Assembly: GCA_964424215.1 (NCBI GenBank)
Contig: CAYRIE010000001.1
Coordinates: 1 to 50,921 of the forward strand
DNA from: an uncultured Pseudobdellovibrionaceae bacterium
GTDB taxonomy: Bacteria; Bdellovibrionota; Bdellovibrionia; Bdellovibrionales; JAGQZY01
Direction of reading: 5' to 3'
Length of the DNA stretch: 50,921 nucleotides
How positions within the stretch are numbered: position 1 is the first letter of the stretch; the number at the start of each line of letters is the position of its first letter. The position numbers and the translations under genes were made by a program. Below, one piece after another: positions 2,524-28,064 of this stretch. Below the pieces are notes generated by a model. That model did not search any database. It was given only the letters and a program-made list of their open reading frames with translations, and had not been told where the DNA came from.

Positions 2524-3905
2524 ATTTATTTAAGACTCCAGAATTCAAGGTGGGTGCGCTGGTTCTGATCGTGAGTCTGGTCGTTGGCTGGATTTCGATG
2601 AGCATCAGCGAAGACCCCAGCTTCTTTGGCTCCTCTCGCACCATAACCTTTCAGATGGAAGATGCCTCCGGTTTGATCGAGGGCAGCCCCATCTATATGG
2701 CCGGAATTCGCGTCGGGATGATTCGTAACATCGAGCTGTATGAGGGGCGCGCACGGATCGTGGCCGTTCTTCAAAGCGACCTTGAGCTGACCACCTCCAG
2801 CGGCGTGGAAGCGCGTCCGGCCGGCATCTTAGGTGACAAAAATATTGTCCTAGTGGCTGGAAACCCAGAGGATCCACTCCTTCCCGACGGAGGTGAGATC
2901 ACCAGGGTGAAAGATACGGCCTCCATAGACAAAGTCGTAGCCCAGGTAGGGGAGATAGCTGACAATCTCAAAGCCGTTGCGGAAAACATCCGCCTGGCTA
3001 CAGAAGGAGACGGTGAGACCGCACTTGGCCGAATCATTGGCAACCTCGAAAATCTCACCGGAGACCTAGCTCACCTGTCTGGGGAGCACCGCCAGCAGAT
3101 CTCACAGATCATTGACGACATCGGCGGCATCACTTCAGGTTTGAACTACTTTATCGGCGACAAAACAGAGGATGGCTTCCAGGCCGGCTGGAACAAGCTG
3201 GCCGCCAGCCTGGGTAATGTTGAGAGAACTCTTTCCAACTTTGAAGAGATCACCGATAAGATCAACCGCGGCGATGGCACCTTGGGCCGACTTGTCAATG
3301 ATGAGACGACCATCGAAGAAATCAATACCGCCGTTGCAGGCATCAACGAGTTCATTGGCGCAGGCCAGAGGCTGAAAACCAGCTTGGATTTCAACTCCTC
3401 GTTTATGTCGGCCGAAGATGCTTTCCGTACGACCGTAGGAGTGAAGATCCAGCCCGGCCTGGATCGCTACTACCTGCTTCAGGTGGTGGATACACCCGAG
3501 GGAGCCTTGGAGGAGCGGCAAATCCTGACCACGGTGGACAACAATCCCACAGTCACCGAAGAGCGGCGGGAATTTTTCAGAAACCGCGTTCGCTTTACGG
3601 CCTTGTTTGCCAAGAACTTTCACAACGTGACGCTCAAAGGCGGCATGATCGAAAGCTCCGGTGGCTTTGGGATGGATCTGCACTTTTTTCGCAGGAAACT
3701 CAGTTTGATCACCGAAGCCTACGAGCTTTCAGATTTCAAAGGCCGAGGCTACTTGCGCTACAACGTTATGAACGGCATATACATGCAGGCCGGAGTGGAT
3801 GATCTCTTTAACAATCAATACGATTCAGTGAACGGTTTCTTCGGATTGGGACTGTTGCTCGACAACGACGATCTGAAGGCCCTTCTTTCGGCGGTATCCT
3901 TTTGA
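2520..3905 (+). CDS. MCE/MlaD-domain protein with long C-terminal extension (461 aa)
   Basis: N-terminal TM helix (VGALVLIVSLVVGWI) followed by an MCE-like domain (GSPIYMAGIRVGMIRNIEL) and a long helical region. The GTG start overlaps the mlaF stop. Confidence 0.75.
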   Translation: MNLFKTPEFKVGALVLIVSLVVGWISMSISEDPSFFGSSRTITFQMEDASGLIEGSPIYMAGIRVGMIRNIELYEGRARIVAVLQSDLELTTSSGVEARPAGILGDKNIVLVAGNPEDPLLPDGGEITRVKDTASIDKVVAQVGEIADNLKAVAENIRLATEGDGETALGRIIGNLENLTGDLAHLSGEHRQQISQIIDDIGGITSGLNYFIGDKTEDGFQAGWNKLAASLGNVERTLSNFEEITDKINRGDGTLGRLVNDETTIEEINTAVAGINEFIGAGQRLKTSLDFNSSFMSAEDAFRTTVGVKIQPGLDRYYLLQVVDTPEGALEERQILTTVDNNPTVTEERREFFRNRVRFTALFAKNFHNVTLKGGMIESSGGFGMDLHFFRRKLSLITEAYELSDFKGRGYLRYNVMNGIYMQAGVDDLFNNQYDSVNGFFGLGLLLDNDDLKALLSAVSF

Positions 3906-5392
3906 TGGTTCTTAATGTTTTCGCTAGTGTCAGTGACAAGTCAGGATTGGCCGCAGCTTTGCGTGAGCTGAGCAAGCAGTACGACCTTAAGATCACATCG
4001 TCCGGCGGCACGGCAAAGCACCTCACCGATGAGGGCTTTGAGGTCGAGGATGTTCAGGCGCTTACGGGTTTTCAGGAAGTTTTTGGTGGGCGAGTCAAAA
4101 CCCTTCACCCCATGGTTCACATGGGGCTGCTTTACCGCAATGAGGAAGACCGCCGCGAGCTGGAACGGCAAGGAGGGCGACCCTTTCATGTGGTGATCGC
4201 CAATCTTTATCCCTTTGAAGAGGCGGCCGCTGCCGGCAGCAAAAATTTGGTGGAGTATATCGACATTGGCGGCGTGGCCCTTTTGCGTGCGGCCGCCAAG
4301 AACTTTGAACACGTCGCTGTTTTTTCAGATTCTCAAGACTACTGGCGTATGGCCGATGCGGTCGCCTCCTTAGAGATCCGTCAGGATTTAGCTCGGAAAG
4401 TTTTTCGGACCACAAGTCACCTCGATGATCAAATTGCACAAAAGCTTTTTGGTGAAGACACTCTCACCCAGAGATGGAGCTCTCACCGAACCTTGCGCTA
4501 CGGTGAAAACCCTCAGCAGCGCGGTTGGTGGCTCACCCAAGGGTCTCAGGGCTGGCAGCAGGCTAAAATCCTTCAGGGCAAGGAGATGTCGTTTAATAAC
4601 TTCTTAGATTTAGAGTCCTGCCTAAGAACCTTGCTGCTTCTGAACGCTCCGGCGGTTGTGGCCGTAAAGCACAACAACCCTTGCGGGGCGGCCGAAGCGG
4701 ATCAACTTCTTACGGCCCTAGATCGGGCCCTTAAGGCCGATCCCATTTCCGTTTTTGGTGGAGTGGTGGCTTTGTCTGGACCGGTCGGTGCGGCTGAGGC
4801 TGAACTTCTAAGCGGTCTTTTTCTGGAAGTGGTTTTAGCGCCCCAGTTTTTAGCCGACGGTTTAGAGGTGCTCCGCAAAAAAAAGAATCTGCGCTTGGTG
4901 GAGTGGCCCGAGATGCTTCAGAGCCAGGCACCGCTGGACGTGCGGCCCATCCGCGGGGGCGCCGTTCGGCAGGACGCGATGTTGGTTGAAGAGAACCCTG
5001 ACAACTGGGAAATCTTCGGTCAGCCTCTTAAGGCTCAGGAGAGGCAGGATGCACTCCTAGCTCTTAAGGTGGTGTCCGAGCTCCGCAGCAATGCTATTGC
5101 TATCGTTGCTGGTGGTCAGACTCTGGGGCTTGGCATGGGACAGGTGAACCGGGTGGATGCGGTGGAGCATGCGCTTCACAGAGCCAAGAAATTTCACGGC
5201 GACGTGCCCCACTGGACCTTGGCCTCCGACGCCTTCTTTCCGTTTCCAGACAGCATTGAGCTGATGGCACCTTATCCCGTACAAACAGTGATCCAGCCGG
5301 GAGGCTCCATCAAGGACGATGACGTTCTAGCTGCCAGTCAAAAGTTAGGACGCCGGATGATTTTAACCGGGCGAAGGTACTTCAGGCATTGA
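3902..5392 (+). CDS. purH: Bifunctional AICAR formyltransferase / IMP cyclohydrolase
   Basis: PurH motifs throughout: SVSDKSGL (MGS-like domain), GGRVKTLHPMVH, KHNNPCGAA, ASDAFFPFPD, IQPGGSIKDDDV, and C-terminal RYFRH. Confidence 0.9.
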   Translation: MMVLNVFASVSDKSGLAAALRELSKQYDLKITSSGGTAKHLTDEGFEVEDVQALTGFQEVFGGRVKTLHPMVHMGLLYRNEEDRRELERQGGRPFHVVIANLYPFEEAAAAGSKNLVEYIDIGGVALLRAAAKNFEHVAVFSDSQDYWRMADAVASLEIRQDLARKVFRTTSHLDDQIAQKLFGEDTLTQRWSSHRTLRYGENPQQRGWWLTQGSQGWQQAKILQGKEMSFNNFLDLESCLRTLLLLNAPAVVAVKHNNPCGAAEADQLLTALDRALKADPISVFGGVVALSGPVGAAEAELLSGLFLEVVLAPQFLADGLEVLRKKKNLRLVEWPEMLQSQAPLDVRPIRGGAVRQDAMLVEENPDNWEIFGQPLKAQERQDALLALKVVSELRSNAIAIVAGGQTLGLGMGQVNRVDAVEHALHRAKKFHGDVPHWTLASDAFFPFPDSIELMAPYPVQTVIQPGGSIKDDDVLAASQKLGRRMILTGRRYFRH

Positions 5393-14707: not shown

Positions 14708-15318
14708 AGTACTTGATGGCCCTGTTTATGCTATTTTTTTCGGTGATAACTCTGGCCCAAATCAACACAGGTGGGCCAGACTTTCCCATATCTTTGACCG
14801 TCATCCAGGAAGGTTTTCCCAGCCTGAACTTTAAAGATCATCAAGTGGCGCCGGTGGTGATTCATGATGTAGTGGTGGATCAGTACAAAGTGGTCTCTAG
14901 CTCCGATCTGAACATCATCATTCAGACACTTAGACCCGAGTCCATGGCGGAGGTCTATGGGATGCTTTCAGATGCCAACCATTTTATTGAGACGGACTTA
15001 GAGCCCATCGATGGACCTCTTGAAGTTTACGGCTATCACTTGCCACCGGAAGACCCAGCGGAAAACATAGACACTCTCACCGCCTATGGCGATTTCGTTT
15101 TGAGAATGTTAAATTTCTATGAAATTTTCAGTCCGCTGATCGGCTACCCCATTGTTGTTCTTGCTCTGCCCAGAGAGGTCCAACTGTCTTGGATCTCTTT
15201 CCTGATAGCTCACAACGTTTTTGGAAGAAACACAGACGAGGTGATCTACGTTCCCGTCAAAAAACCTGAGAATCCTAAAGAGCAGCGAGCCAGCGGCTAC
15301 CCGCCAAAGGCCCAGTAG
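14704..15318 (+). CDS. Hypothetical secreted protein
   Basis: GTG start overlaps the upstream stop (GTGA). Signal peptide MKYLMALFMLFFSVITLAQ. No recognisable domain. Confidence 0.45.
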   Translation: MKYLMALFMLFFSVITLAQINTGGPDFPISLTVIQEGFPSLNFKDHQVAPVVIHDVVVDQYKVVSSSDLNIIIQTLRPESMAEVYGMLSDANHFIETDLEPIDGPLEVYGYHLPPEDPAENIDTLTAYGDFVLRMLNFYEIFSPLIGYPIVVLALPREVQLSWISFLIAHNVFGRNTDEVIYVPVKKPENPKEQRASGYPPKAQ

Positions 15319-15459
15319 ACGGAGTGCAATCTTTTAGGAAATGACCAAGTTCTTATCATCTTTCTGAGCGGCACTGGGTGAAGTGTTTCATTTGGGGCCG
15401 CTGAGGTCTAATTTTCCCCCACCTCCTTTAGTCTGAATCATATTTATCCGATTTTTAGC

Positions 15460-16299
15460 ATGAATCTGAAACTTTTTAAGGGTTTGAGGTACCTCATGCA
15501 AAAACAATTCTATGTGAGTCTAAAAGGTGAGCAGGCGGGACCCTTCAGCGTCGATGAGATAGTTGCCAAAGTAAGTCAGAAGGAGTTATCCGCTACCGAC
15601 TACTGCTATGACGACTCAAGTGAGGACTGGGTTCTCCTAGGGGAGCATCCCACCCTGTCAGATCATGTGAAAAAGGCTTCCGGAGATCTAGTACAGGTCA
15701 CAGAAGAGCTGGTGTCTCACGCATCGCCCCCTGGTGAGATCGAGTGGTTTGTTCTCAAAGGGGAGAACAAGTTTGGACCCTTCACCTTTAATGATCTTAT
15801 TAAAATGCTTCAAGAGAAGTCCATTTTCGAGTTCGACTATGTTTGGCACACAGACCTTACCACTTGGCAAAGAATTGCAGAGGTGGCCGAGTTTCGGCCG
15901 CATAACATTAAAAGGCTGAGAGATTCGGGCAAAGCCACTATTTCAGATATCTTCTTCCGACGCAGACACATGCGCGTTGACTGGGAATCCTCCATTATCA
16001 TCCATGACAATCGCCATTTATGGAGGGGTGAGAGCCTAGAGATCAGCGCAGGTGGCGCGGGAGTGGTGATTCAAAACGCCTCACTGAACCCGGGTCAGTC
16101 GCTTTACCTTCACTTTAAACCAGCAGACGGTGTGCCCGCCTTCAATGCGGTCTGTGAGATCGTCTCTAAGCAGTATGTGAAAGACGCCAAGGGGAGTGAT
16201 TCTCCCGTTAGATACGGTGTGAAATTCACTAAGATCAACACGACCACGCAGCGTGCACTTCAAGAGTACGCCGACAAGAAGGGAAGTGTGGCGGCTTAA
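15460..16299 (+). CDS. Tandem GYF_2 (DUF4339) domains + C-terminal PilZ domain protein (putative c-di-GMP receptor)
   Basis: Two GYF_2-like segments (FYVSLKGEQAGPFSVDEIV ... SEDWVLLGEHPTL, and WFVLKGENKFGPFTFNDLI ... TWQRIAEVAEF). PilZ motifs RRRHMR (15958-15975) and EISAGG (from 16039) are about 21 residues apart. An alternative ATG at 15496 (MQKQFYV) has a GAGG 8 nt upstream. Confidence 0.65.
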   Translation: MNLKLFKGLRYLMQKQFYVSLKGEQAGPFSVDEIVAKVSQKELSATDYCYDDSSEDWVLLGEHPTLSDHVKKASGDLVQVTEELVSHASPPGEIEWFVLKGENKFGPFTFNDLIKMLQEKSIFEFDYVWHTDLTTWQRIAEVAEFRPHNIKRLRDSGKATISDIFFRRRHMRVDWESSIIIHDNRHLWRGESLEISAGGAGVVIQNASLNPGQSLYLHFKPADGVPAFNAVCEIVSKQYVKDAKGSDSPVRYGVKFTKINTTTQRALQEYADKKGSVAA

Positions 16300-16372
16300 G
16301 ACCTGATCAGATTACTAGTTAGTCAGCTGTGCTCGAACCTATGCATGTACCCTCCAGAGCGCAACCAGCAAC

Positions 16373-17395
16373 ATGAAACGGAACGATATGGGTGCATGCA
16401 AATCAGAAAAACATTTTGAGCTATTGAGAGCGGGGCTATGGCTGTCCGTCATTTTCGTTCTGTCCTGCTCTACCGATCAGCAGTTTTCGATCATGCCTTC
16501 TCAGGAAGTTATCGAAACGAACCTAAGTTACAACAACGAAGTGGACGTGCTGTTTGTGGTTGATACTTCAGCCACCATGTCCGCCCATCAGGTGGATCTA
16601 TCAGAGCAGACACCTTACTTTCTGGAGGCTCTGATTGACACCAAACTGGACTTCCGGATCGCCGTGACCACTATGGACATGCGGCCCGCTGGAGAGCGCG
16701 GCCAGTTTGTCGGCTTCCCCAAAGTTCTGACAGCTCACACCCCTCAGCTTTACCGACTCCTTGAGGATCGAATCGCCCTTATGGGTGAGGGCGGTGGTTC
16801 TGTTGAGCGGGGGCTTGAGGCTATGCAAACGGCACTTGAGCGAGAAGCCGGCCTGGCTAGCAGTCAGTTTTTCAGGCCCGATGCACTCTTAGTCCTAGTG
16901 TTTCTGACCAACGAAGATGACACCAGTCCGGCCCTCGATTACGTGGCTCTGCTGGATGGCTTGAAGCCGCCCCTACCATCGGGGGAGCGCAGCTGGGTCA
17001 GTCACTTTATTGGTGTTCTTCCTGGTGGTTACAACTGCGCGGCCTTTGAGGGGCAGTATGTGCCCGGCTACAAGTATCTTCCACTTTCCCAAGCTTCAGG
17101 CGGGGTGATGGAAAACATATGCACGGCCGATCTAGGTGTGGCGGTGGGGTCCATCCGTAGCCGCGTCATTCAATATGTCACCGATATCCGTTTGGACCGG
17201 GTTCCTGATCTTAGCACCGTGCGGGTGAAGGTTAACGGTCAGGCTGTGCCCAAAAGCAGTGTCAATGGCTGGTCCTATGTCAGCGAGTTCAATTTGATTC
17301 GCTTTCACGGCTCGGCCATACCCAAGGCGGACGCACTTGTACAAATAGATTTTGATCCCATTGGAATTAAAGAAAGTCTTAAGAAGAGTTTTTAA
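16373..17395 (+). CDS. von Willebrand factor A-like lipoprotein
   Basis: Signal peptide with a lipobox-like VLSC. MIDAS-like DTSAT (D at 16562) in the context VDVLFVVDTSATMS. A later VLVFLTNEDD strand is typical of vWA folds. Confidence 0.55.
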   Translation: MKRNDMGACKSEKHFELLRAGLWLSVIFVLSCSTDQQFSIMPSQEVIETNLSYNNEVDVLFVVDTSATMSAHQVDLSEQTPYFLEALIDTKLDFRIAVTTMDMRPAGERGQFVGFPKVLTAHTPQLYRLLEDRIALMGEGGGSVERGLEAMQTALEREAGLASSQFFRPDALLVLVFLTNEDDTSPALDYVALLDGLKPPLPSGERSWVSHFIGVLPGGYNCAAFEGQYVPGYKYLPLSQASGGVMENICTADLGVAVGSIRSRVIQYVTDIRLDRVPDLSTVRVKVNGQAVPKSSVNGWSYVSEFNLIRFHGSAIPKADALVQIDFDPIGIKESLKKSF

Positions 17396-17417
17396 GGAAG
17401 GAATTTAGGGGGACACC

Positions 17418-18101
17418 ATGTTGCAGATGATTGTTGACTCAGGAGTGTTTGGTTACGTGATCGTAGGAATCGCGTTTGTTGCCGTGCTGCTCATAGCTGA
17501 GCGCAGTTACGTTCTTTTTAAGACGTACTCCATCCATGCGGACAGCTTTATGAAGAAGATTCAGGAGTTGATCGGTAAAGATCAGATTTCTGAAGCTGTT
17601 ACCTTGTGCGCCAAGGAAGACGAAAAACCCCTTCCCCACGTGATCAAAGCTGTCTTGGAGCGATCCGACCGTGATGATGAGTCCATCTATCAGGGTATGG
17701 ATATCGCCATGGCTGAGGTCATCCCCAAGCTTGGGAAAAGACTCAACTACCTTTCGCTGTTTGCCAACGTGTCCACTCTGTTCGGACTTTTAGGTACGAT
17801 CCAGGGTTTGATCATGTCCTTTGCGGCCGTGGCCCAAGCAGATGCTTCCCAAAAGAACGAGCTGCTGGCCCAGGGTATTTCCATTGCGATGTACACGACG
17901 GCCATGGGTCTGATCGTGGCGATCCCCTCTCTTGTGGTCTACACCTTTTTGCATAACAAACAGTCGCGCATGCTCGAGGAGATTATCGAGCACGCAGCTA
18001 AAGTTGTCGACACTCTAACAACTCGGCACTATGTGGCCCCGCAAAGCAGTGCAGCAGGTGGTGCTCCTCAAAAGGCCCCTCCTGTCCCACGGGCATCTTA
18101 A
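17418..18101 (+). CDS. MotA/TolQ/ExbB-family proton channel (AglR-like)
   Basis: Three TM helices and the family core (LFGLLGTIQGLIMSFAAV ... GISIAMYTTAMGLIVAIPSLVVYTFL). Confidence 0.85.
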   Translation: MLQMIVDSGVFGYVIVGIAFVAVLLIAERSYVLFKTYSIHADSFMKKIQELIGKDQISEAVTLCAKEDEKPLPHVIKAVLERSDRDDESIYQGMDIAMAEVIPKLGKRLNYLSLFANVSTLFGLLGTIQGLIMSFAAVAQADASQKNELLAQGISIAMYTTAMGLIVAIPSLVVYTFLHNKQSRMLEEIIEHAAKVVDTLTTRHYVAPQSSAAGGAPQKAPPVPRAS

Positions 18102-18127: not shown

Positions 18128-18688
18128 GTGAGAAAGTCTAGGATTCAGCGCGAAGTGAAAGGGGAGGTTCAGAACGATCTGGATCTCACCCCGACGTTGT
18201 CCCTCATGATTGTGCTTATTCCGATGCTTTTGCTGACTGCTGCTTTCATCAAGATCAAAGTGATCGAGGCACCTCTTCCTCAGTTTATCGCCGAGGCTAT
18301 CGCCGAGAACGCTTCAGGAGAGGAGCTTATCACTCTGGATGTAGATGTGCTCCAAGACCGCAGTGTGCGTATTAACCTGAGCGTGAACGGGAAAGTCTCC
18401 AAAAACACCGTCGGGCCTCAGCGCAGTGAGGGAGCGGCTACTGTGAACCTGGATCAGCTCCGTTCAGAGCTAATCAGGATCAAGCGCGCCCATCCCACGG
18501 TCTTTTCGATGTCCGTTAACCCTGCACCAGCGGTGACCTATGACGAAATCGTAAAGGTGCTCGATGTAGCTCGAACTACGGGATCTAAAAGCGAAACTTT
18601 TGACATTATCAACAGAGAAACTGGCGAGAAAAACACCACGGAACTTATGTTTCCGGAGGTCATTTTTGGCAATTTGGTAGAGGGCTGA
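18128..18688 (+). CDS. ExbD/TolR-family protein, paralogue 1 (TM Asp replaced by Ser)
   Basis: ExbD-like N-terminus DLDLTPTLSLMIVLIPMLLL plus a periplasmic domain. The position aligned by eye with TolR D23 / ExbD D25 is Ser (codon 18200-18202). GTG start. Confidence 0.75.
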   Translation: MRKSRIQREVKGEVQNDLDLTPTLSLMIVLIPMLLLTAAFIKIKVIEAPLPQFIAEAIAENASGEELITLDVDVLQDRSVRINLSVNGKVSKNTVGPQRSEGAATVNLDQLRSELIRIKRAHPTVFSMSVNPAPAVTYDEIVKVLDVARTTGSKSETFDIINRETGEKNTTELMFPEVIFGNLVEG

Positions 18689-18689
18689 A

Positions 18690-19205
18690 ATGGGACGTTT
18701 ATCCGAAACGATGAAACGCTTTAATAAACAGGACAGCAGCGTGGGGGTGCAGCTCACCTCTATGGTGGACGTATTGACCATCCTGCTTGTTTTCCTGCTT
18801 AAAAGCTTCTCCTCAAGTGCAGTGGTTCCGCCTATGGGAGATGGAGTGCGTCTGCCCGATTCTACCGCGATGGTGGAGCCCATTGAAGCCCTCAAGTTGG
18901 TCGTCTCTCCCCTAGGGGTTTTCGTCAACGATGAGATGGTTATCACGTTTCAGGACTCCAAGATTTTGGAGACGGACCTCTCCGGTCAGGATCCAGATTT
19001 GATAGTCAAGCTTCATGAGAAGATGGAATCTGAAGCTAAGAGAGCTGAAGAGATCGCCAAGGTGAATCCAACCTTAGATTTTAAGGGCGAGGTTCTGATG
19101 CAGGCAGATAGAAGCCTCTCTTATGAGGTCTTAAGAAAGATTATGTACACATCCTCGTTAGCTGGTTACGGCGATTTGAAATTGGCTACGATGTTGGCGG
19201 AGTGA
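18690..19205 (+). CDS. ExbD/TolR-family protein, paralogue 2 (TM Asp retained)
   Basis: VQLTSMVDVLTILLVFLL with the conserved Asp (codon 18768-18770). It starts 1 nt after the previous stop. Confidence 0.8.
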   Translation: MGRLSETMKRFNKQDSSVGVQLTSMVDVLTILLVFLLKSFSSSAVVPPMGDGVRLPDSTAMVEPIEALKLVVSPLGVFVNDEMVITFQDSKILETDLSGQDPDLIVKLHEKMESEAKRAEEIAKVNPTLDFKGEVLMQADRSLSYEVLRKIMYTSSLAGYGDLKLATMLAE

Positions 19206-22132
19206 GAATGCACAGCAGAGTTTGGACCCTCATTTTAGTACTATTTCTCGGGGGAGCCGTCACGGCTCAGGCGCCGCTGGAATCCATCCGGCTCACTCCC
19301 GGAGATGAGATGAGCAACGAGAAAAAGTCGCTGCAAGCCGAACTGCTGATTAGAAAATCTGAGGATCAAGCGCTCGCTCAGATTAAAGATTTGCTCAGAA
19401 AGCATCGCGGAGAGGCTCTTGAAGTGGAACTTTTGTTCCGTTTAGCGGAGCTGCACATGCGCCGGGCTAAGACCGAAAGATTTTTTGAAATCCATCGGCA
19501 CAGCGATACAGTGACCAAGCTCGCACCTCAACATGTTAAAAAGGCCTCTCAGAAGCGAGAAATCCAGCAGGCGATCAGCACCTATGACAACATCCGCCGC
19601 CGGTTCCCTAAGTACCAACAAATGGACTTAGTGCTTTTCAACAGCGGCTTTGCTCGGCAGCTGATCAACGACGACCGCTCTGCTGAAAAGCTCTACTGGG
19701 AGATTATCGCACAGCACCCCAACTCTTACCTTGTGCCCGATGCCCACCTAGCTATCGGCGAGATCAATTTCGAGCGGCGTGGCTATCAAAAGGCGCTGGA
19801 GCATTTTCTAAAGATCGAGGACTATCCCGCATCCAGAGCTTACTCCTACGGGATGTATAAAGCCTCCTGGGCCTACTACAACCTTCAGAGGTCCGTAGAT
19901 GCTATGAAAAAGCTTGAGCAAGTGGTCACCTACGGTCAGTACGTCAAAGACAACAATCTCGATAGCCGGTTGGATTTGCGTGCAGAGGCTCTTAAGGATT
20001 TAGCGCTTTTCTATAGCGACGTTATGAAGGCTAAAGGCGCTGTGGCCTATTTTATGAAGTGGTCCAGGGAGCTGAGCGCCTGGCCTCAGGTTCACATGCT
20101 CACAGAAATCTACAAGCGTCACGGTAAGCACGAGGACATTGAAGTGGTCCTGCTGGACGTTATCAATATGATTCCCGATAAGAGTGCCGTGATTGCAGCC
20201 TATGATGAGCTGCTCATGACCCATGAGCGCGCCCTCAACAGAGACAAGGCTGTGGAGCGCCTCAACCTTTTTGTCAGATACTGTAAGGGACTGGCCCCGC
20301 GCGGGAAAATGCCCGCCGAAGAAGCTGTGGAGCTTTTCGACAGCTGTAAAGGCAAGGTTGTGGAGAGCTCCCACCACCTTGCATCTAAATGGCATGGGCT
20401 ATGGATTAAAAACAACAAGCATGAACTCTTCCAAAAGAGCGCCTCGCTGGCCTATTTGGCTTACTTAGAGTTTGCGGATCCGGTGACCGAGGAAATGGCT
20501 CAGGTGCGCTTTAACTACGGTGAGCTCCTCTTTAACGGCGAAGAGTTTCGTAAGGCCTCAGGCAGTTACGCCCTTGTAAGAACCGCTAAGCCCTCTCAGC
20601 AGCTGCTTCACGACGGGAACTACGCTGCCATTGTTAGCCTTGAGCGCGCCACAGGCGATACTTGGAACGATAAGGACGAGCAGCACTTTAAAAAGCTCGT
20701 GACCTCCTACCTTGAGGATTCACCTAAGGGAAAGTACAGCCTGGATCTGCGGTTTAAAGTGGCCTTTATCGCCTATCAAAAAGGTCGCTACGATGAAGCT
20801 ATGCCTCAACTGAAAGAGCTGGGCTGGGCGCATAAGGGGACTGAGAACGGAGAGCGTGCGCAGGATCTTTATCTGGATATTCTGAACATCAAAAAAAGGT
20901 ACGGAGATTTGAAGCAAGCCGCTGCGGAAGTAGGGGAGATGACCCGATCTTCAGAGCGCAAGGCCAAGGTCAAAAACATCTATCAAGAAGCTTACTTCGC
21001 CGAAGTGCAGACCTCAGTAGAAGCGGGTGCTGGCATCCAGGCAGCCCAAAGCTTTTTGGCCTTCTCTAAAGAGAACCCTAAATCTCCTTTGGCCTCTAAA
21101 GCCTGGTGGAATGCCACGCAAATTCTCTTTGACGCTGAAGAGTACAAAGAGGGATCCCAGAAGTGTCTGGAGTTTGCCGCAGCCTACCCTAAGGACGATC
21201 AGGCCAAAGAGTGCCTCGTCCAGGCAGCTTTGCATTTTGAAAAAATGGGTCATCTTGATCAAGCCGCACACGCACTGGAGATGGGTGCAAAGCTGAGCCA
21301 GGGAGCTGAGGCGCAAAAGACCTTAGAGCTTGCGGCTGACTTTTGGGCTCTCGGCGGAGCTGATAGCAAGGCCGATGGTCTTTACGATAAACTCTTTTCA
21401 TCATCTGCGGCGGCCGATCAGGACAGAGTTTTAACCAAATGGCACCGTTTGGCTCAGAGCAGAGGCATGAAGGCTCGGGAAAGGCTTTTGCGTGAGAGAG
21501 TTTTGGCCCTACCCAAGTCGGCCTACAAGTTTGAGCTCCTTGCCGAACAGGTCGAAAGTAGCTTTTCCAAGGGCGACCTCCCTGGTGCCTTTAGGGCGGC
21601 TAGCGGAATTGTGGGCAGCTCAGCAGCGCCAAGTCACCTCAAAGCCAAGGCCAGGTACTTTCAAGCACGAGTGCTCCAGGACGAGTTTGAAAAGCAGAGT
21701 GTGAAGGCGCGGCCCGAAAGGTTAGCTCTGGTTTTAGGCATCAAAACGGAAAAGCTGGAAAAGGCTCAGCAGGCTTTTCAGGCCACAATTTCCTACCGCG
21801 ACTCCGAGTATTCTTTAAAAGCCCTTGAAGGCCTAGCTCAGATCTACCTGACCTATGCCCAAGACATGCGAACGATCAGTGCGCCCCAGGAGCTGAGCGC
21901 TCAAGAGCAGGCTCAGTTCCGCGCGGAACTTGAGAACTTGGCTATCCCCATGGAGGAAAAGGGCATCGAAGGTGTAGAGCAGGCACTCCGTTTTGCCAAA
22001 GACGTTAAACTTCGCGACGATTCGGCCCACAGGATTCAAACTTGGCTGGACCAACTGAACCACCAACCAGCCGGATTAGATGTAAGATCTTTCCAGCCTC
22101 AGCCCTATCTACCTCGGGGAGGTGATGCATGA
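19202..22132 (+). CDS. Large secreted TPR-repeat protein (GltD/AgmU-like by position and architecture)
   Basis: 976 aa. Signal peptide (VLFLGGAVTAQA) followed by TPR-like repeats throughout. The start overlaps the ExbD stop. Same position as gltD after the aglRQS-type genes. Confidence 0.6.
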   Translation: MRMHSRVWTLILVLFLGGAVTAQAPLESIRLTPGDEMSNEKKSLQAELLIRKSEDQALAQIKDLLRKHRGEALEVELLFRLAELHMRRAKTERFFEIHRHSDTVTKLAPQHVKKASQKREIQQAISTYDNIRRRFPKYQQMDLVLFNSGFARQLINDDRSAEKLYWEIIAQHPNSYLVPDAHLAIGEINFERRGYQKALEHFLKIEDYPASRAYSYGMYKASWAYYNLQRSVDAMKKLEQVVTYGQYVKDNNLDSRLDLRAEALKDLALFYSDVMKAKGAVAYFMKWSRELSAWPQVHMLTEIYKRHGKHEDIEVVLLDVINMIPDKSAVIAAYDELLMTHERALNRDKAVERLNLFVRYCKGLAPRGKMPAEEAVELFDSCKGKVVESSHHLASKWHGLWIKNNKHELFQKSASLAYLAYLEFADPVTEEMAQVRFNYGELLFNGEEFRKASGSYALVRTAKPSQQLLHDGNYAAIVSLERATGDTWNDKDEQHFKKLVTSYLEDSPKGKYSLDLRFKVAFIAYQKGRYDEAMPQLKELGWAHKGTENGERAQDLYLDILNIKKRYGDLKQAAAEVGEMTRSSERKAKVKNIYQEAYFAEVQTSVEAGAGIQAAQSFLAFSKENPKSPLASKAWWNATQILFDAEEYKEGSQKCLEFAAAYPKDDQAKECLVQAALHFEKMGHLDQAAHALEMGAKLSQGAEAQKTLELAADFWALGGADSKADGLYDKLFSSSAAADQDRVLTKWHRLAQSRGMKARERLLRERVLALPKSAYKFELLAEQVESSFSKGDLPGAFRAASGIVGSSAAPSHLKAKARYFQARVLQDEFEKQSVKARPERLALVLGIKTEKLEKAQQAFQATISYRDSEYSLKALEGLAQIYLTYAQDMRTISAPQELSAQEQAQFRAELENLAIPMEEKGIEGVEQALRFAKDVKLRDDSAHRIQTWLDQLNHQPAGLDVRSFQPQPYLPRGGDA

Positions 22133-23037
22133 ACCTACTCCGTGTTTGGCTTATCAGCTTGGCTCTTGCAGGATGTGCCTCAACGGGTCCTAAAGCGAAG
22201 TCCGGCTCGGCCAAGAGCGTGCCCTTCGTTCAGGGGGTTCACGGCACTGAAGCTCACTCTGTTTCGGGTACGTGCACAGTGAACCGAGAAGCTTGGCTTT
22301 CCATGACGTGGAAGCGTCTTAACGATGTAGCCAACAAGTGTGTTCAGGAGCAGAAGTGGTCGACAGTGAAAGATCTGGGTCACTTTCTTGCTGAAAAGTT
22401 CTATCACAGCCCCTGGGGACTTTATTATCTGTCCTTATACTACGATCAGGCCAAGGACGCCGATAGATCCCTATGGTTCATTGAGGCCGCTTTGGCCAAA
22501 ACAGCTGTGGACCTGGGTCTTCTGAACTACCAAAAAGCTAAAGTTCTTCTGAGTGTGGGTGATTTGCCTGGAGCCTACCAGTTTTTTGAAAAAGCAGTTC
22601 GGCTAGACGACAACTTGGTGGACGCCCACATTTACTTGGGACAGCAAGCTTATCTGGACCGAGACTTGGGGCGCGCCGAAAAGCATTTGGCCAAAGCCTT
22701 CGGAAAAAACAAACTCCAGGAGGTCGTGCACTTTCAGATGCTCGCCCAGTCCTACGAAGCGCGGAAAAAGTGGGCCGAGTCAGTGGACGTTCTGGAGCGA
22801 GGGTTAAGGGCTCATAAGGACAGCTTGGAGCTCAAACTCCAGCGGGCCTCTGTGCTCGAGCAGGGGTTGAAGGATCTCCGAGCCGCACTGAAAGCCTACG
22901 AGGATGTTCTCAAGCTTCAGGCGAAAAGATCCCAAAATTCATCGCCTGTGAAAGATAAGATCGATCAAATTAAAAAGTTACTCGAGCAGAACGACCAAAA
23001 CGAACGAGCACCAGCGACTCGAGAGGAAAGGGCCTAA
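22129..23037 (+). CDS. TPR-repeat lipoprotein (GltE-like by position)
   Basis: ATGA overlap with the upstream gene. Lipobox LALAGC. TPR-like repeats. Confidence 0.55.
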   Translation: MNLLRVWLISLALAGCASTGPKAKSGSAKSVPFVQGVHGTEAHSVSGTCTVNREAWLSMTWKRLNDVANKCVQEQKWSTVKDLGHFLAEKFYHSPWGLYYLSLYYDQAKDADRSLWFIEAALAKTAVDLGLLNYQKAKVLLSVGDLPGAYQFFEKAVRLDDNLVDAHIYLGQQAYLDRDLGRAEKHLAKAFGKNKLQEVVHFQMLAQSYEARKKWAESVDVLERGLRAHKDSLELKLQRASVLEQGLKDLRAALKAYEDVLKLQAKRSQNSSPVKDKIDQIKKLLEQNDQNERAPATREERA

Positions 23038-23039
23038 GG

Positions 23040-23279
23040 ATGATTAAATTCATTGTGACTTTGGCTTTGAGCTTAGCTTGCGCCACCGTATTCGCCCAAT
23101 CGGGGCGTAGCAAAAAGGTGCAAGAGGTGAATTTTGACGGGGTCGACATCGACGGGAAGGTGAAGAACCCCGACGGGGCCTACCTCCTGCAAAAAAAGGG
23201 AGTGGACTTTCTGCCCCTTTATAAAGTGAAGACCGAATTTGATAACAACATCAAAGAGTCCATCGAGTACTTGAGGTGA
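23040..23279 (+). CDS. Small secreted protein, 79 aa (position-equivalent to gltF)
   Basis: Signal peptide MIKFIVTLALSLACATVFAQ. It lies 2 nt after the previous stop and 4 nt before the next start. The assignment rests on gene order only. Confidence 0.4.
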   Translation: MIKFIVTLALSLACATVFAQSGRSKKVQEVNFDGVDIDGKVKNPDGAYLLQKKGVDFLPLYKVKTEFDNNIKESIEYLR

Positions 23280-23283
23280 CCAA

Positions 23284-24792
23284 ATGAGTCGGCGTGAGTT
23301 GCTGGTCGAGCATTATTACAACAAGAGATTTCTGAAGTCTCGGCGGTTTAAGTCCAATCAGAGCCAAGTCATCTTTGGCTCTTCGCCCTCGGCGGACATT
23401 CGGCTGATGGGTCAGGACGTTAATGGCATTCACGCTCTGGTGGAGCATGTGGACGACACATGGCTCCTGATGGACCTTGCCAGTCCCACGGGCACCCGTG
23501 TGGACGGTGAGAACATCATCGAAAAAACCATTCAGGAGCCAACGTCCGTTAGAATCGGAAGCCATGAGATCCGCCTGATTCCCATTCACATTGAATCCAC
23601 GCTCTTTAAGCCGGAGGAGACTCCGGCTGCCCAGGCAGGGGAGACTCTGCACCAAGTGGTCGTTCGGCGAAACGGTGAGATTTTGCGAACGGCCGTTCTT
23701 AAGCCCCAGGAGAGCTTCATCTGGGGCGCTCAGGACATGATTTTTGCGCCTCCCACCACAAGAGAGTGGGTCGTAAGTAGGTTCGATGGACTCAGTGTGC
23801 AGCAGCGCCTAACCTCAGCTCCCCAGGTGGAGCTTGAAAAGGTCAAACTCCAACTCACTGAAAGCGAAAAGATCTCCTTGGTCGGTGTGGGGACCTTTGC
23901 ACTGCTATGCTTTCTTTTGTTGGTACTAAAGCCAGCTACGGAGGCAAAGCCCCTTCAGGAGCAGTCCAACGTCTATGCCAAGATGGTGCTAGATCCTGAG
24001 GTGTTGAAAGAAAAACGAAACGACGCTCAACAAAACCGTAGAAAACTGGTTCAACAGAAAGTAGCAAAAACCGCTCAGCAGAAGGCTGGACCCACCAGCA
24101 AAATACCAAGTAAAGCCGCACCCTCATCGGGTGCGCCCACAGCAAGAGTGCAGGATGGACCCAAGGTTCTGACCAACATCCGCACCGCCCAGCTCGGACA
24201 GATCATCGGGCGCATCAGCCAAAGAGCTGACAGTTCACGAGGGCTCGCATCCGCCCAAGGGCCCAACGCACCCACCTCATCTAGCCGGCTCCGAGGCAGC
24301 GGCCTCCCTTCAGTGGAGGGCAGCGGGGTGAAGCGTGGAAATGGAACAGCAGCCTCCAGTCCGTATCAAATTGCGGCAGTGGGGACCTCCGGTAGAGGAG
24401 GGGGAGTTTCAGATTTTAAAGGGGTAGGCAGTCTCTCCTCAGGCTCTGTGGGAACGGCTGACGTGGGAATTATGGAGGATGAGGCTGAGGTGGATGGCGG
24501 CTTAGACCGCGAAGTTATCGCCAACTATATTAAAAGTCAGCTCGGACAAATCCGATACTGCTATGAACGACAACTGAGTGCGAATCCTGATCTTTATGGC
24601 AAGGTTCAAATTCAGTTTACGATTGCTGCCCATGGGGGTGTGTCAGCACACTCCATTGGACAGACAACATTAAAAGACGCCACGGTAGAGGGATGTATTT
24701 TGCGGCGTGTGGCTCAGTGGAAGTTTCCGGAACCGAAAGGCGGGACGCAGGTCAAAGTCACCTACCCCTTCCTGTTCAAGAGTACTAACTGA
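23284..24792 (+). CDS. FHA domain - TM - AgmX/PglI-type TonB-C-like domain protein (GltG-like)
   Basis: N-terminal FHA-like segment (VIFGSSPSADIRLMGQDVNGIHALVEH ... WLLMDLASPTGTRVDGENI). TM helix (ISLVGVGTFALLCFLLLVL) and a low-complexity linker. C-terminal domain: GGLDREVIANYIKSQLGQIRYCYERQL ... GKVQIQFTI ... VEGCILRRVAQWKFPEP ... VTYPFLFK. Confidence 0.65.
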   Translation: MSRRELLVEHYYNKRFLKSRRFKSNQSQVIFGSSPSADIRLMGQDVNGIHALVEHVDDTWLLMDLASPTGTRVDGENIIEKTIQEPTSVRIGSHEIRLIPIHIESTLFKPEETPAAQAGETLHQVVVRRNGEILRTAVLKPQESFIWGAQDMIFAPPTTREWVVSRFDGLSVQQRLTSAPQVELEKVKLQLTESEKISLVGVGTFALLCFLLLVLKPATEAKPLQEQSNVYAKMVLDPEVLKEKRNDAQQNRRKLVQQKVAKTAQQKAGPTSKIPSKAAPSSGAPTARVQDGPKVLTNIRTAQLGQIIGRISQRADSSRGLASAQGPNAPTSSSRLRGSGLPSVEGSGVKRGNGTAASSPYQIAAVGTSGRGGGVSDFKGVGSLSSGSVGTADVGIMEDEAEVDGGLDREVIANYIKSQLGQIRYCYERQLSANPDLYGKVQIQFTIAAHGGVSAHSIGQTTLKDATVEGCILRRVAQWKFPEPKGGTQVKVTYPFLFKSTN

Positions 24793-24825
24793 CGCTAGAG
24801 CCACTCACCCCAAAAGGAGCACGTT

Positions 24826-25638
24826 ATGCTAAAATTTCTCTACCCCGCGCTGGGCCAACTAGGGTCCGCGGCCGCCGTCGCCCTGTTCGCTTTAAGTCTG
24901 TCGGCTCAATCTAAAGCACCTGCCAAAGCACCCGCCAAAGGAGCGAATGCGCCGGCGGGGGATTATGAAAAGCTCGATGTGAGTGACCTTGAGCAAAGGT
25001 ACTGGACCCCCAGAGACACGGAGTTCAACGTCGTGCAAAACCGCACCTACTCCAAGGTCAAGCGGCTGGGCGTGGGCTTAAGCTTGGGGACGGTCATCAC
25101 AGACACCTATGTGGACACTACTGACATGACCCTTACGCTCAACTACTTTCCAACCGAGCGCTACGGTATAGAAGTGAACTACACGGACCACAGTGGAAAG
25201 CCCTCAAAGGCTGTCAGTGACTTTATTAACTCACATGGCACCATACCCAACCACAACCTGATCCAACAATCCATTGGAGCCAGCTTTAACTGGGTTCCTC
25301 TCTACGCCAAGATGAGCTTTCTTGAGAAACGAATTTTGTACTACGACATGTACATTTCCCCCGGGATTCAGTACGTGACCTACAAGCAGCATTACCGCGA
25401 CCAAGTCAACACGGCACTGAACCGGGAAAAAGAGAACTCAGTTCTGGGCTTCTCTCTGGACGTCTCTCAGGTGGTGTTTCTCAATCGAAATTTCGCCTTC
25501 CGACTCGACTTTAAGAACCGTTGGTACAAAAACGACGTCTTAAGGCACAGCACTGGGGAGACCGATAGCTCGGTTGTGATCAACTCCAACTCATTGCTCT
25601 TTGGGTTCACCTACCTTTTCGGAGGCGGAGGACAGTGA
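24826..25638 (+). CDS. Outer-membrane beta-barrel protein (GltA/GltB/NfsA-like candidate)
   Basis: Signal peptide. Alternating hydrophobic beta-strand pattern. C-terminal beta-signal-like LLFGFTYLF. 270 aa, similar in size to GltA/GltB. Confidence 0.55.
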   Translation: MLKFLYPALGQLGSAAAVALFALSLSAQSKAPAKAPAKGANAPAGDYEKLDVSDLEQRYWTPRDTEFNVVQNRTYSKVKRLGVGLSLGTVITDTYVDTTDMTLTLNYFPTERYGIEVNYTDHSGKPSKAVSDFINSHGTIPNHNLIQQSIGASFNWVPLYAKMSFLEKRILYYDMYISPGIQYVTYKQHYRDQVNTALNREKENSVLGFSLDVSQVVFLNRNFAFRLDFKNRWYKNDVLRHSTGETDSSVVINSNSLLFGFTYLFGGGGQ

Positions 25639-28064
25639 TGCGCAGCTCGAGAATTCTACCCTTACTGCTTTTTTTGCTGGTGCTTGCCGCCGCACCTGCT
25701 GAGGCTCGCTTTGTCGATCCTGCAGGTGAGGTGGAATTCACCTCCGATCCGGTGCCCCCGGCTCCGCCGACCAGCTCCTGGTCGAAGCTGAAGTCTTGGA
25801 CGAAGGAAAAAATTGAAACTGTCAAAGCGGAGGCGCGCAGCCGCGGCTGGCTGCCCTCTGAAGAAGAGCGCAATGAAGCTCTGGCCAAAAAAGTTCAAAA
25901 AGAGGCCGGTGTTGAGCCCGTGGTCACAGACGAGCTGACGGCGATCGCTGAGAGCTACTCGCCTGAACAGGTGGCTGAGGCCACCGAGCGGGTCCGCAGC
26001 TCTTCAATCCTTACGGAGCAAGGTAAGGCAAGGCCTCACGGGCCGGAGCTGGAAGCTAGTGAAACCGGAGTGCCGCGCTACCAAGTCCGCGTTCCAGCGG
26101 GTGAGAAGGTGCACCTTCCCCGATTGAATGTGGGTAGAGAGCCCAAACTGAGCCGTAAAGACTTAAAGGTCCCAAGCTTTGATATGGCTCGCATCACCAA
26201 AGACATGTCGCTTAAGATTCACCAAGATCGGGAGCTGAGCGCACAGGACGAGAAGTTTTTAGCCAACATGACCCTGCAGGCCCATCGACCCATCAAGACC
26301 TACGAGGTTGAGATTCTCACCAACAAGCAGATCGATGATCTAAAAGTGAGGGTGGCTGAAATTAAGGCCGCTATTGAGCCTTTGGCGGCTCTTGAACTTA
26401 AAGAATTTAACGAATTCACTCAAGACGACAAAGACATGCTCAGTGCCCTGATTCTGATTCAGAACCACAACCAGTGCTCAGCTGCCGTCTCGCTGCTTCA
26501 CAGGCTGACCAAGACAGATCACGCCGGCGAGGCTTATTATCATCTGTCCATGTGCCAGAAGAGTCTGGATCTAAAGTCTGAGGCCGCCTTCAGCGCCGTT
26601 GAGGTGATGAATCGAGGCCAAGCTGAATATGTGGCCGACGTTGTGGGTGCTCTTGGAAGCGATATTGCGTACGAACATCTGGAGGCTTACTCGCGTGGCC
26701 TTTTAAGGTCCATCACTCAGCCCGCACTTAAAATTATGGAAGATCCCAAGCGCGCCGCTGACGTTGCTATGGTTCTTACTGAGTACGGTGCGGCCACGGG
26801 CAGGTACAAACTGGCGCGGGACTGGGGCGCTAAGGTCCCCTCGGCTCACCCCAAATACTTTCAAGCACTCTATATGAAGGCCGTGGCTGAATACGCTTTG
26901 GGAAGTGAAAAGCAAAGTCTATCGACCCAAGAAAAGTTAATGGAGCTGCTTAAGGCCTCCACGGATCAAGACGTTCGGACTTTGGCTGCTGTGAATTTAG
27001 GGCGGCTTCAGTTCCAAAGCGGCAAATTCCAGGCTGCTCAAAAGAGCCTCCATGCCGTGGATAAAAACCATCCGCTTTGGATCCAGTCCCTACTTGAAAT
27101 GGGCTGGAGCCAACTGCAGTACGGTGACTTTGCTGGTGCCATCGGAAATATGTATTCGATCCACTCGCCCTTTTTTCAGTACGTCTACAAGCCGGAGTCC
27201 TACGTTGTCCGCACCATCGGCTACCTGAACCTGTGCCAGTACGCTGACGCTTACCGAACGCTTTCCACCCTGGAGAAGGACTATCGCCCAGCGCTGGCAA
27301 AAATAGAGAGCTATATCAAGGAAAACCGGCATGCCAAAAACTTCTATCAGACGGTGAGAACCTATATGCGGTCTAAGTCCACCAGCGACATCGATGGGCT
27401 TCCGCCCCAAGTGATTCGCGAGATGGCGCGGCATAAAGACTTTTTGAACCTTCAAGGAGCATTCAACCGCAACGTGGACGAAAAGCAGAAGGTTCAAAAC
27501 TTAGATGGCGCCATTCGCAGAAATATGAATAGGGCCAATCACCTCATCAGCTCTACTCAGGAGCGGCTAGCTCGCCTAGATCAAGAGTTAAAATCCCTGG
27601 GCACAGCTCAGAGCAAGTCGGTGCGAACCGAGCTACAGGTTCAGGCAGAGATTCAGTCTGAGCAGCAGCGTCTGGCAAGCTACAAATACATCCTAGAAAT
27701 TCATAAGCGCACGCGCACCTTGCTGCCCTCTTACGCTAGGGCCGCCAGCGTAAGAACCGCGCGCGTTTTGGACCGTACTCGCGCGGACATTGAGAAAAAG
27801 TTGGCCGCTCGCCTTTACCGGATGCGAGACGGACTGGCACGCATTTTAGAAGCCAACGAGTTTTTGCGCTACGAGGTGTTCTCTGGCAGTGGAGAGAACA
27901 TTCGGTTCGAACTGGCCGGTGGTGAGAAGGCGGGCAAACGGGTTCCCGCAAGTGTCATGCCCAGGTCTAAGGAGCTGCGGTGGTCCTTTGATGGCGAATA
28001 CTGGGCAGATGAAATCGGCCACTACCGCTCCTCACTGAAAAGCAATTGTCCGGAAAGAAATTAG
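25635..28064 (+). CDS. Large secreted TPR-like / helical repeat protein (GltC/NfsC-like candidate)
   Basis: 809 aa. Signal peptide (LLLFLLVLAAAPAEA), helical repeat content, and a coiled-coil-like C-terminal third. The start overlaps the OMP stop. Confidence 0.45.
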   Translation: MMRSSRILPLLLFLLVLAAAPAEARFVDPAGEVEFTSDPVPPAPPTSSWSKLKSWTKEKIETVKAEARSRGWLPSEEERNEALAKKVQKEAGVEPVVTDELTAIAESYSPEQVAEATERVRSSSILTEQGKARPHGPELEASETGVPRYQVRVPAGEKVHLPRLNVGREPKLSRKDLKVPSFDMARITKDMSLKIHQDRELSAQDEKFLANMTLQAHRPIKTYEVEILTNKQIDDLKVRVAEIKAAIEPLAALELKEFNEFTQDDKDMLSALILIQNHNQCSAAVSLLHRLTKTDHAGEAYYHLSMCQKSLDLKSEAAFSAVEVMNRGQAEYVADVVGALGSDIAYEHLEAYSRGLLRSITQPALKIMEDPKRAADVAMVLTEYGAATGRYKLARDWGAKVPSAHPKYFQALYMKAVAEYALGSEKQSLSTQEKLMELLKASTDQDVRTLAAVNLGRLQFQSGKFQAAQKSLHAVDKNHPLWIQSLLEMGWSQLQYGDFAGAIGNMYSIHSPFFQYVYKPESYVVRTIGYLNLCQYADAYRTLSTLEKDYRPALAKIESYIKENRHAKNFYQTVRTYMRSKSTSDIDGLPPQVIREMARHKDFLNLQGAFNRNVDEKQKVQNLDGAIRRNMNRANHLISSTQERLARLDQELKSLGTAQSKSVRTELQVQAEIQSEQQRLASYKYILEIHKRTRTLLPSYARAASVRTARVLDRTRADIEKKLAARLYRMRDGLARILEANEFLRYEVFSGSGENIRFELAGGEKAGKRVPASVMPRSKELRWSFDGEYWADEIGHYRSSLKSNCPERN

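Follow-up and report, generated by a model that had tools for sequence, protein, structure and literature searches.

A 335-residue lipoprotein encoded at the head of an Agl-Glt-like gliding gene cluster of an uncultured Pseudobdellovibrionaceae bacterium is assigned, on the basis of its sequence, to the family of MIDAS (metal ion-dependent adhesion site) lipoproteins of the Bdellovibrionota and Myxococcota, of which Bd0875 and the probable Bd1483 are members. The window, that is, the whole stretch of DNA analysed, covers 50,921 nucleotides (GenBank assembly GCA_964424215.1, contig CAYRIE010000001.1, positions 1 to 50,921 of the forward strand), and the gene is referred to here as the vWA gene after the von Willebrand factor A (vWA) fold predicted for its product. 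The reading preferred here, to which a probability of about 0.55 is given by analogy with characterised gliding systems, is that the protein docks on the outer-membrane module of the Glt machine and serves there as an adhesin or coupler, one that is accessory and exchangeable, with its MIDAS face towards the substratum or the prey.

A 2026 review describes the gliding of Bdellovibrio, as regards its motor, its adhesins and the path taken by the force, as an open challenge (PMC13104615). Bd1483 and Bd0875 as a kind of MIDAS lipoprotein, CglB and CglD as working analogues and the gene arrangement in Bdellovibrio bacteriovorus HD100 are already known, while the recurrence of the gene across the order, its putative origin from two clades, the lack of it in half of the clusters sampled and its CglB-like C-terminal domain are not stated in the literature consulted. 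Three observations that are treated separately in that literature are joined here, namely that Bd1483 is a MIDAS lipoprotein (2024), that it heads a gliding operon, disruption of which is detrimental to biofilm predation (2008, 2010), and that such a gene recurs at cluster heads across the Bdellovibrionales. Together they yield a concrete, testable candidate for the Bdellovibrio gliding adhesin, and a candidate adhesin that is an exchangeable accessory would explain weak single-mutant phenotypes. Taken alone, the gene of the window is an ordinary member of its family.

Fold, adhesion site and family of the vWA protein

The full open reading frame (ORF) spans 16373-17395 on the forward strand. 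A start at 16373 would add five residues to the protein; the second ATG, at 16388, is the start used by the gene callers and by the closest homologues (335 amino acids, P0001), and residues are numbered from it. The ORF list holds no ORF of at least 80 amino acids on the opposite strand beneath the gene. A homologue search gave 50 proteins at E <= 1e-24, nearly all of them unnamed, 300-340 amino acids long and from metagenome-assembled genomes (MAGs) of the Bdellovibrionota. The lipoprotein-type signal that the original prediction had read from the motif VLSC is borne out, as the N-terminus MGACKSEKHFELLRAGLWLSVIFVLSC matches a PROSITE-type lipobox pattern (LWLSVIFVLSC) and the lipobox Cys27 is kept in all 36 homologues that cover the position; the mature lipoprotein would have about 310 residues.

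An AlphaFold model built with a 38-sequence alignment (mean predicted local distance difference test score, pLDDT, 84; predicted template modelling score 0.79) has three parts, a low-confidence segment (residues 28-50), a region of alternating beta-strands and alpha-helices (51-265) and a five-stranded C-terminal beta domain (279-321). In a Foldseek comparison with the PDB, 165 matches were obtained at E <= 0.001, the best of which are all vWA or integrin I-like domains, including ITIH1 (6fpy, 8e-8), the pilus adhesin SpaC (6m48), the integrin beta I-like domain, ANTXR2, von Willebrand factor A1 and collagen VI. The fold of the model is that of a vWA domain, in agreement with the original prediction. 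The best matches are proteins whose vWA domain interrupts a beta domain, and Bd0875 and Bd1483 have been described with the same insertion of a vWA domain in a beta domain (PMC11003981). Sequence searches gave no Pfam match for the protein itself, weak VWA or VWA_2 matches in just 4-6 of the 38 family members and nothing in the PDB with the single sequence; the family profile gave three PDB matches with E-values of 0.3-1.1, all on the DxSxS strand of vWA adhesins, which agree with the fold but are not significant.

The MIDAS-like motif DTSAT, noted earlier in a beta-strand context, does follow a predicted strand, and the family consensus at this loop is the canonical DxSxS (Asp in 37, the first Ser in 36 and the second Ser in 34 of the 38 sequences). 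The Thr that replaces the second Ser, likewise correctly described, is confined to the protein of the window and its two closest relatives. The stretch VLVFLTNEDD, which had been read as a downstream strand, corresponds to a predicted strand at residues 167-173 and a loop with the invariant D178. Metal binding at the MIDAS site and a disulfide between C217 and C245 are both predicted from the conservation of these residues. Residues invariant in the small beta domain are G294-W295, F306, G308 and P312. The conserved N-terminal segment may act as a tether or docking strand that pairs with this domain, by analogy with Bd0875, Bd1483 and CglB, in which the N-terminus joins the small domain or outer-membrane barrels (PMC11003981, PMC11761067).

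Among the curated NCBIfam models, the best match is NF052240 (MIDAS family adhesin, the Bd0875 equivalog) with 55.5 bits (E 5e-15), far below the cut-off of 700 bits, which no gene in the whole genome of the window reaches. Bd1483 and Bd0875 are lipobox-bearing MIDAS proteins with a small domain formed of N- and C-terminal beta-strands (Tyson et al. 2024, PMC11003981), and the vWA protein has the same build, with a conserved lipobox, a five-stranded C-terminal beta domain and a conserved N-terminal segment of low confidence. The aromatic residue of the small domain and the acidic residue of loop 3 are conserved in Bd0875 and the vWA protein, but the unique cap region of Bd0875 is absent from the latter (PMC11003981). 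A further difference is that the known role of Bd0875 is in prey invasion and that the literature consulted does not place it in agl or gliding clusters, the comparison made here having left out the Bd0875 gene neighbourhood. The second-best curated match is to NF033765 (CglD), with 26 bits over model positions 639-704 only and far below the cut-off of 400. It lies within model positions of about 635-950, which form the CglD vWA module and which Bdellovibrio-type cluster-linked homologues match with up to 59 bits; CglD itself has about 1100 amino acids with large extra domains, against 335, so that the domain alone is held in common. The vWA protein resembles the CglD vWA module, and CglB more distantly.

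The analogy with CglB drawn in the original prediction, which also noted that M. xanthus encodes CglB away from its motor genes, holds for the architecture and does not extend to orthology. NF033757 (gliding_CglB, cut-off 200 bits) gave no match to the vWA protein at E <= 0.1 and nothing in the genome of the window, which is 86 % complete. The same model detects CglB at 260-455 bits in five myxococcal genomes, which also carry, on contigs other than those of the recovered cglB loci, separate members of the vWA protein's family that it does not recognise. CglB orthology was therefore rejected, and the myxococcal homologues of 370-410 amino acids, which had been suspected to be CglB, were ruled out by NCBIfam. 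When the family alignment was compared with an alignment of seven CglB orthologues (hhalign), the alignment of the two profiles was confined to the C-terminal beta domain together with the last helix (probability 86 %, E 5e-6). Since the myxococcal genomes carry both, CglB and the family studied here are judged from their sequences to be paralogous lineages with a common build of lipobox, vWA/MIDAS domain and small beta (jellyroll) domain, and both are associated with a machine of the Agl-Glt type. They differ in their cysteines: M. xanthus CglB has 16 beyond the lipobox, forming disulfides (PMC9946355), against two conserved in the vWA family, and the ORFs of CglB orthologues hold 13-24, some of these ORFs being uncut upstream.

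Gene neighbourhood and distribution in the Bdellovibrionales

Between the last nucleotide of the vWA gene, at 17395, and the ATG of the ExbB-like gene, at 17418, lies the gap of 22 nucleotides that had been reported. No terminator-like site was found in this gap and no sigma-70-like site in a promoter scan of 15200-17600; the three terminator-like sites within that interval lie in coding sequence and are at chance level. The gene is probably co-transcribed with the AglRQS-type stator genes and the Glt-type trans-envelope genes, the order of the latter being kept in relatives.

Loci were scanned with the cluster proteins of the window (80 from species-representative genomes, 2 from assemblies and 40 regions around homologues of the 976-amino-acid tetratricopeptide repeat (TPR) protein, TPR976), and a maximum-likelihood tree of 93 family members was inferred, in which four groups were distinguished. 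Clade A (19 rows, support 98) contains the vWA protein of the window; 14 of its members are linked to Glt genes, four accompany a GYF-PilZ gene only and one stands alone. The gene order in this clade is GYF-PilZ, vWA and then either ExbB-ExbD-ExbD-TPR976 or TPR976 directly, and the GYF-PilZ gene adjoins the vWA gene in 15 of the 19 loci. As orders without ExbB and ExbD between occur, the stator is not a constant neighbour: the constant partners of the vWA gene are the Glt/TPR module and the GYF-PilZ gene. The position immediately upstream of the stator genes, to which the original prediction had drawn attention, thus holds in the window, and many orthologues abut the TPR976 gene instead. Many close relatives (loci L013-L022) have no ExbB-ExbD-ExbD trio in the cluster at all, the vWA gene abutting the TPR976 gene, and in two genomes (L121, L122) the trio is instead found on the upstream side of the GYF-PilZ gene. 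The stator module is therefore both gained and lost by the cluster.

Clade B (12 rows, support 99) lies in the tree amid Bdellovibrio paralogues that are unlinked, and 10 of its own members are linked, in the order vWA, PilZ, ExbB, ExbD, ExbD, TPR976; this order was also found in all 10 additional Bdellovibrio-type genomes sampled. The Myxococcota clade (38 rows) shows no linkage to Glt genes, and the fourth group is made up of the paralogues in the genome of the window, at least eight in number. A single origin for all cluster-linked vWA genes was considered and is disfavoured, as the tree separates the two clades and forcing A and B into one costs 58 log-likelihood units, with p = 0.035 in the approximately unbiased (AU) test, a marginal value for groups that were named after the tree had been seen. 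This weakly suggests that the cluster head was occupied twice, or else that the unlinked paralogues arose from a linked ancestor.

The GYF-PilZ gene adjoins the vWA gene in both clades in opposite orders, PilZ-vWA in clade A and vWA-PilZ in the Bdellovibrio type, and the pair persists in at least four loci with no other Glt-cluster gene beside it (e.g. L010, L024, L025). A speculative and rather doubtful extension is that the two genes form a unit, recruited to the cluster more than once, in which a cytoplasmic cyclic-dinucleotide receptor would be functionally paired across the envelope with a surface adhesin. If true, the pairing of PilZ protein and MIDAS lipoprotein would represent an 'inside-out' control of the integrin type, in which the exposure of the adhesin is governed by way of the Glt machine.

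The clade B arrangement leads to the model organism. At one locus on the minus strand (L116), a 353-amino-acid lipoprotein (3509-4570) is followed by a 206-amino-acid GYF and PilZ protein (2877-3497), a 244-amino-acid ExbB-like protein, two ExbD-like proteins and a TPR gene, and as this order matches the gliding operon, the 353-amino-acid protein is most probably Bd1483 of B. bacteriovorus HD100, the first gene of the operon Bd1473-1483 (PMC2277423, PMC2797640). BLASTP aligned it with the vWA protein over the full length (27 % identity over 317 amino acids, E 2e-24). The two share the lipobox, the vWA/MIDAS domain, the small beta domain and a place at the head of a cluster of ExbB-ExbD-ExbD-TPR (about 1000 amino acids)-...-GltG-OMP-GltC type. 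They are similar in length (353 and 335 amino acids) and differ in clade (subject to the marginal AU value given above) and in gene order (vWA-PilZ-ExbB in HD100, PilZ-vWA-ExbB in the window), and the PilZ protein of HD100 has one GYF domain and 206 amino acids against 279 in the window. The claim that the gene was hard-wired into the motor operon is accordingly sustained as regards its place at the cluster head, which is conserved in many relatives, and not as a peculiarity of this genome, the arrangement being already present, though uninterpreted, in HD100. A mariner transposon insertion in Bd1483 lowers biofilm predation, as does an insertion in aglR (PMC2277423).

Proposed role and competing explanations

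In Myxococcus xanthus, CglB acts as the substratum adhesin of the Agl-Glt machine and is essential for gliding. It is a surface lipoprotein that is recruited and unmasked by the GltABCHK outer-membrane platform (PMC9946355); in a structural model its N- and C-terminal strands lie next to GltK and between the barrels of GltA and GltB (PMC11761067). By analogy, the small beta domain would dock the vWA lipoprotein on the outer-membrane Glt module (the beta barrel and the GltC-like protein), the MIDAS face would bind a ligand on the substratum or prey, and proton-driven stator force would reach the lipoprotein via the GltG-like TonB-C protein and the TPR proteins. Docking and an outward MIDAS face are proposed on account of the CglB-like C-terminal domain, the conserved N-terminal segment and the barrel, GltC-like, GltG-like and TPR genes of the cluster; the outer-membrane or surface location, the docking and the gliding role of the protein are all presumptive. 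The function of Bd0875 requires its MIDAS Asp, and both Bd1483 and Bd0875 were detected in a study of the surface secretome (PMC11003981).

Several observations weigh against this reading. In a reverse test, 23 orthologous clusters of the same order were sampled, and the vWA gene was found at the head in 11 (one of clade A, ten of clade B); in the other 12, the GYF-PilZ gene still heads the cluster and has the stator or TPR976 as its immediate neighbour, the gap leaving no room for a further gene. Co-occurrence with Agl/Glt-like clusters, proposed earlier as a check, is therefore partial: 14 of the 19 close orthologues stand at a cluster head, and the absence of the gene from orthologous clusters had been named beforehand as contrary evidence. 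In all five genomes of vWA-less clusters that were checked (99-100 % complete), no clade A orthologue was found anywhere, the best matches being paralogues (26-35 % identity) that lie at a great distance or on other contigs. In two genomes the GYF-PilZ and vWA pair stands by itself, and the only Glt cluster, located elsewhere in the genome, is of a second type described below. The bd1483 deletion caused no invasion defect, gliding being unreported for the mutant (PMC11003981). The N-terminal segment is modelled with low confidence, which is also as expected for a strand that would be ordered only in a complex. Finally, the protein of the window departs from the family consensus at two MIDAS positions, S63T and S137G; residue 137, the MIDAS Thr position, is Ser in 32 of the 38 homologues, and the window protein has Gly there and Ser one residue later, at 138.

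Because 12 of the 23 clusters lack the gene and the five genomes lack an orthologue, the Glt machine can exist without the vWA gene. The pattern therefore marks the protein as accessory, a component for which loss or replacement is frequent, and the proposed mechanism treats it as such and not as part of the core; such turnover is more in keeping with an adhesin than with a structural part of the core. This bears directly on one alternative, namely that the protein is a periplasm-facing lipoprotein with a structural role in the Glt envelope complex or a role in its assembly, and that its MIDAS clamps an acidic residue of a partner in place of an external ligand. Outer-membrane lipoproteins face the periplasm by default, the gene is closely packed with those for the TPR and TonB-C-like proteins of the periplasm, and binding to a protein partner is common among vWA-MIDAS domains, ITIH1 and integrin beta I being among the top fold matches. 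This explanation is nevertheless considered unlikely, since so many orthologous clusters would not lack the gene if it encoded a structural part of the core, and a surface location is reported for the relatives Bd1483 and Bd0875 (PMC11003981).

The same absences agree with another alternative, in which the vWA protein would be a stand-alone prey or surface adhesin like Bd0875, one of many paralogues with different ligands, co-regulated with the gliding genes and not coupled to the motor. Such a role is considered less likely than the preferred reading. The genome of the window has at least eight further paralogues, all unlinked and on other contigs, and most members of this large family have no link to Glt genes (63 of the 93 tree rows); loci with the GYF-PilZ and vWA pair only exist, and the site of action of Bd0875 is the predator-prey interface, with no description of it as belonging to a Glt machine (PMC11003981). 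Against it, the cluster head is held by two separate clades, in close orthologues only very short gaps separate the gene from the PilZ gene on one side and the stator on the other, and the C-terminal domain is similar to the one by which CglB docks on the outer-membrane module of the Glt machine (PMC11761067).

The two MIDAS deviations make the site near canonical, not exactly so. They could also mean that the site has decayed in the window orthologue and that the protein is a metal-independent scaffold or on its way to loss, two of the five canonical coordinating positions being off the consensus in it and its nearest relatives and the gene having been lost in related lineages. This appears very improbable: the change of Ser to Thr retains the hydroxyl, a Ser adjoins the Gly, D59, S61 and D178 are intact, and the protein shares 68-78 % identity with three relatives in an undamaged frame. 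An accessory adhesin or coupler on the Glt module thus remains the preferred reading.

Feature coordinates and further observations

Table 1. Coordinates of the vWA gene, its predicted features and the neighbouring cluster genes in the window
Feature	Position	Strand	Basis
vWA/MIDAS lipoprotein gene, 335 amino acids	16388..17395	+	ORF list; 50 homologues at E <= 1e-24; identical called protein P0001
Predicted lipoprotein signal peptide ending in lipobox VLSC; lipidated Cys27 at 16466-16468	16388..16468	+	Pattern match, Cys conservation
N-terminal segment QxFxL..., conserved, low confidence; F33 in >= 90 %	16469..16534	+	Alignment; pLDDT 48-58
Predicted vWA (Rossmann-like) domain, residues about 50-265	16535..17182	+	AlphaFold pLDDT mostly > 85; Foldseek PDB matches
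Putative MIDAS loop 1, D59-T-S61-A-T63 (DTSAT, residues 59-63)	16562..16576	+	Follows predicted strand 51-58
Acidic loop N-E-D-D after strand beta-4	16910..16921	+	D178 invariant; E176 in 34/38; matches Bd0875 loop-3 acidic residue E213 (PMC11003981)
Span between invariant C217 (17036-17038) and C245 (17120-17122)	17036..17122	+	Both Cys in 38/38
Predicted C-terminal small beta domain, residues about 266-330	17183..17377	+	Five predicted strands, pLDDT 80-95
GYF_2 and PilZ cytoplasmic protein, 279 amino acids, upstream neighbour	15460..16299	+	Pfam; conserved partner of vWA gene
ExbB/TolQ/AglR-like stator gene	17418-18101	+	Pfam, NCBIfam
ExbD/TolR-like stator gene 1	18128-18688	+	Pfam, NCBIfam
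ExbD/TolR-like stator gene 2	18690-19205	+	Pfam, NCBIfam
Block of Glt-type genes (976-amino-acid TPR protein, 302-amino-acid TPR lipoprotein, GltG-like, barrel, GltC-like)	19202..28064	+	NCBIfam
302-amino-acid TPR lipoprotein	22129-23037	+	
GltG-like FHA and TonB-C protein	23284-24792	+	gliding_GltG 197 bits, below curated cut-off
OMP_myx_plus beta barrel	24826-25638	+	TIGR04565 74 bits, cut-off 60
GltC-like protein	25635-28064	+	gliding_GltC 106 bits, below curated cut-off

The genome of the window carries a second, paralogous Glt-like cluster (G000:C99:948-3599, minus strand, L137) in the order OMP, GltC-like, TPR, whose TPR protein has 26 % identity to the 976-amino-acid one, and both cluster types are present in most genomes of the order. 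No vWA gene was found within 8 kb upstream of the second type in 16 loci, including the C99 copy. Two tandem MIDAS lipoprotein paralogues lie elsewhere in the same genome (G000:C14:9802-12245, L002/L006); one of them has an in-frame TAA inside the match and is possibly a pseudogene or an assembly error.

In the Myxococcota, proteins of about 800-1200 amino acids carry the vWA and beta module at the C-terminus after long N-terminal regions, often encoded by two tandem genes (L032, L036, L039, L054, L056, L074, L075, L078, L085), and recall the larger adhesin CglD. Family members on contigs labelled as Klebsiella pneumoniae, Enterobacterales, Rickettsiales and Gammaproteobacteria MAGs (L062, L080, L084, L091, L060) nest in the Myxococcota clade, and these contigs are probably mis-binned or mislabelled.

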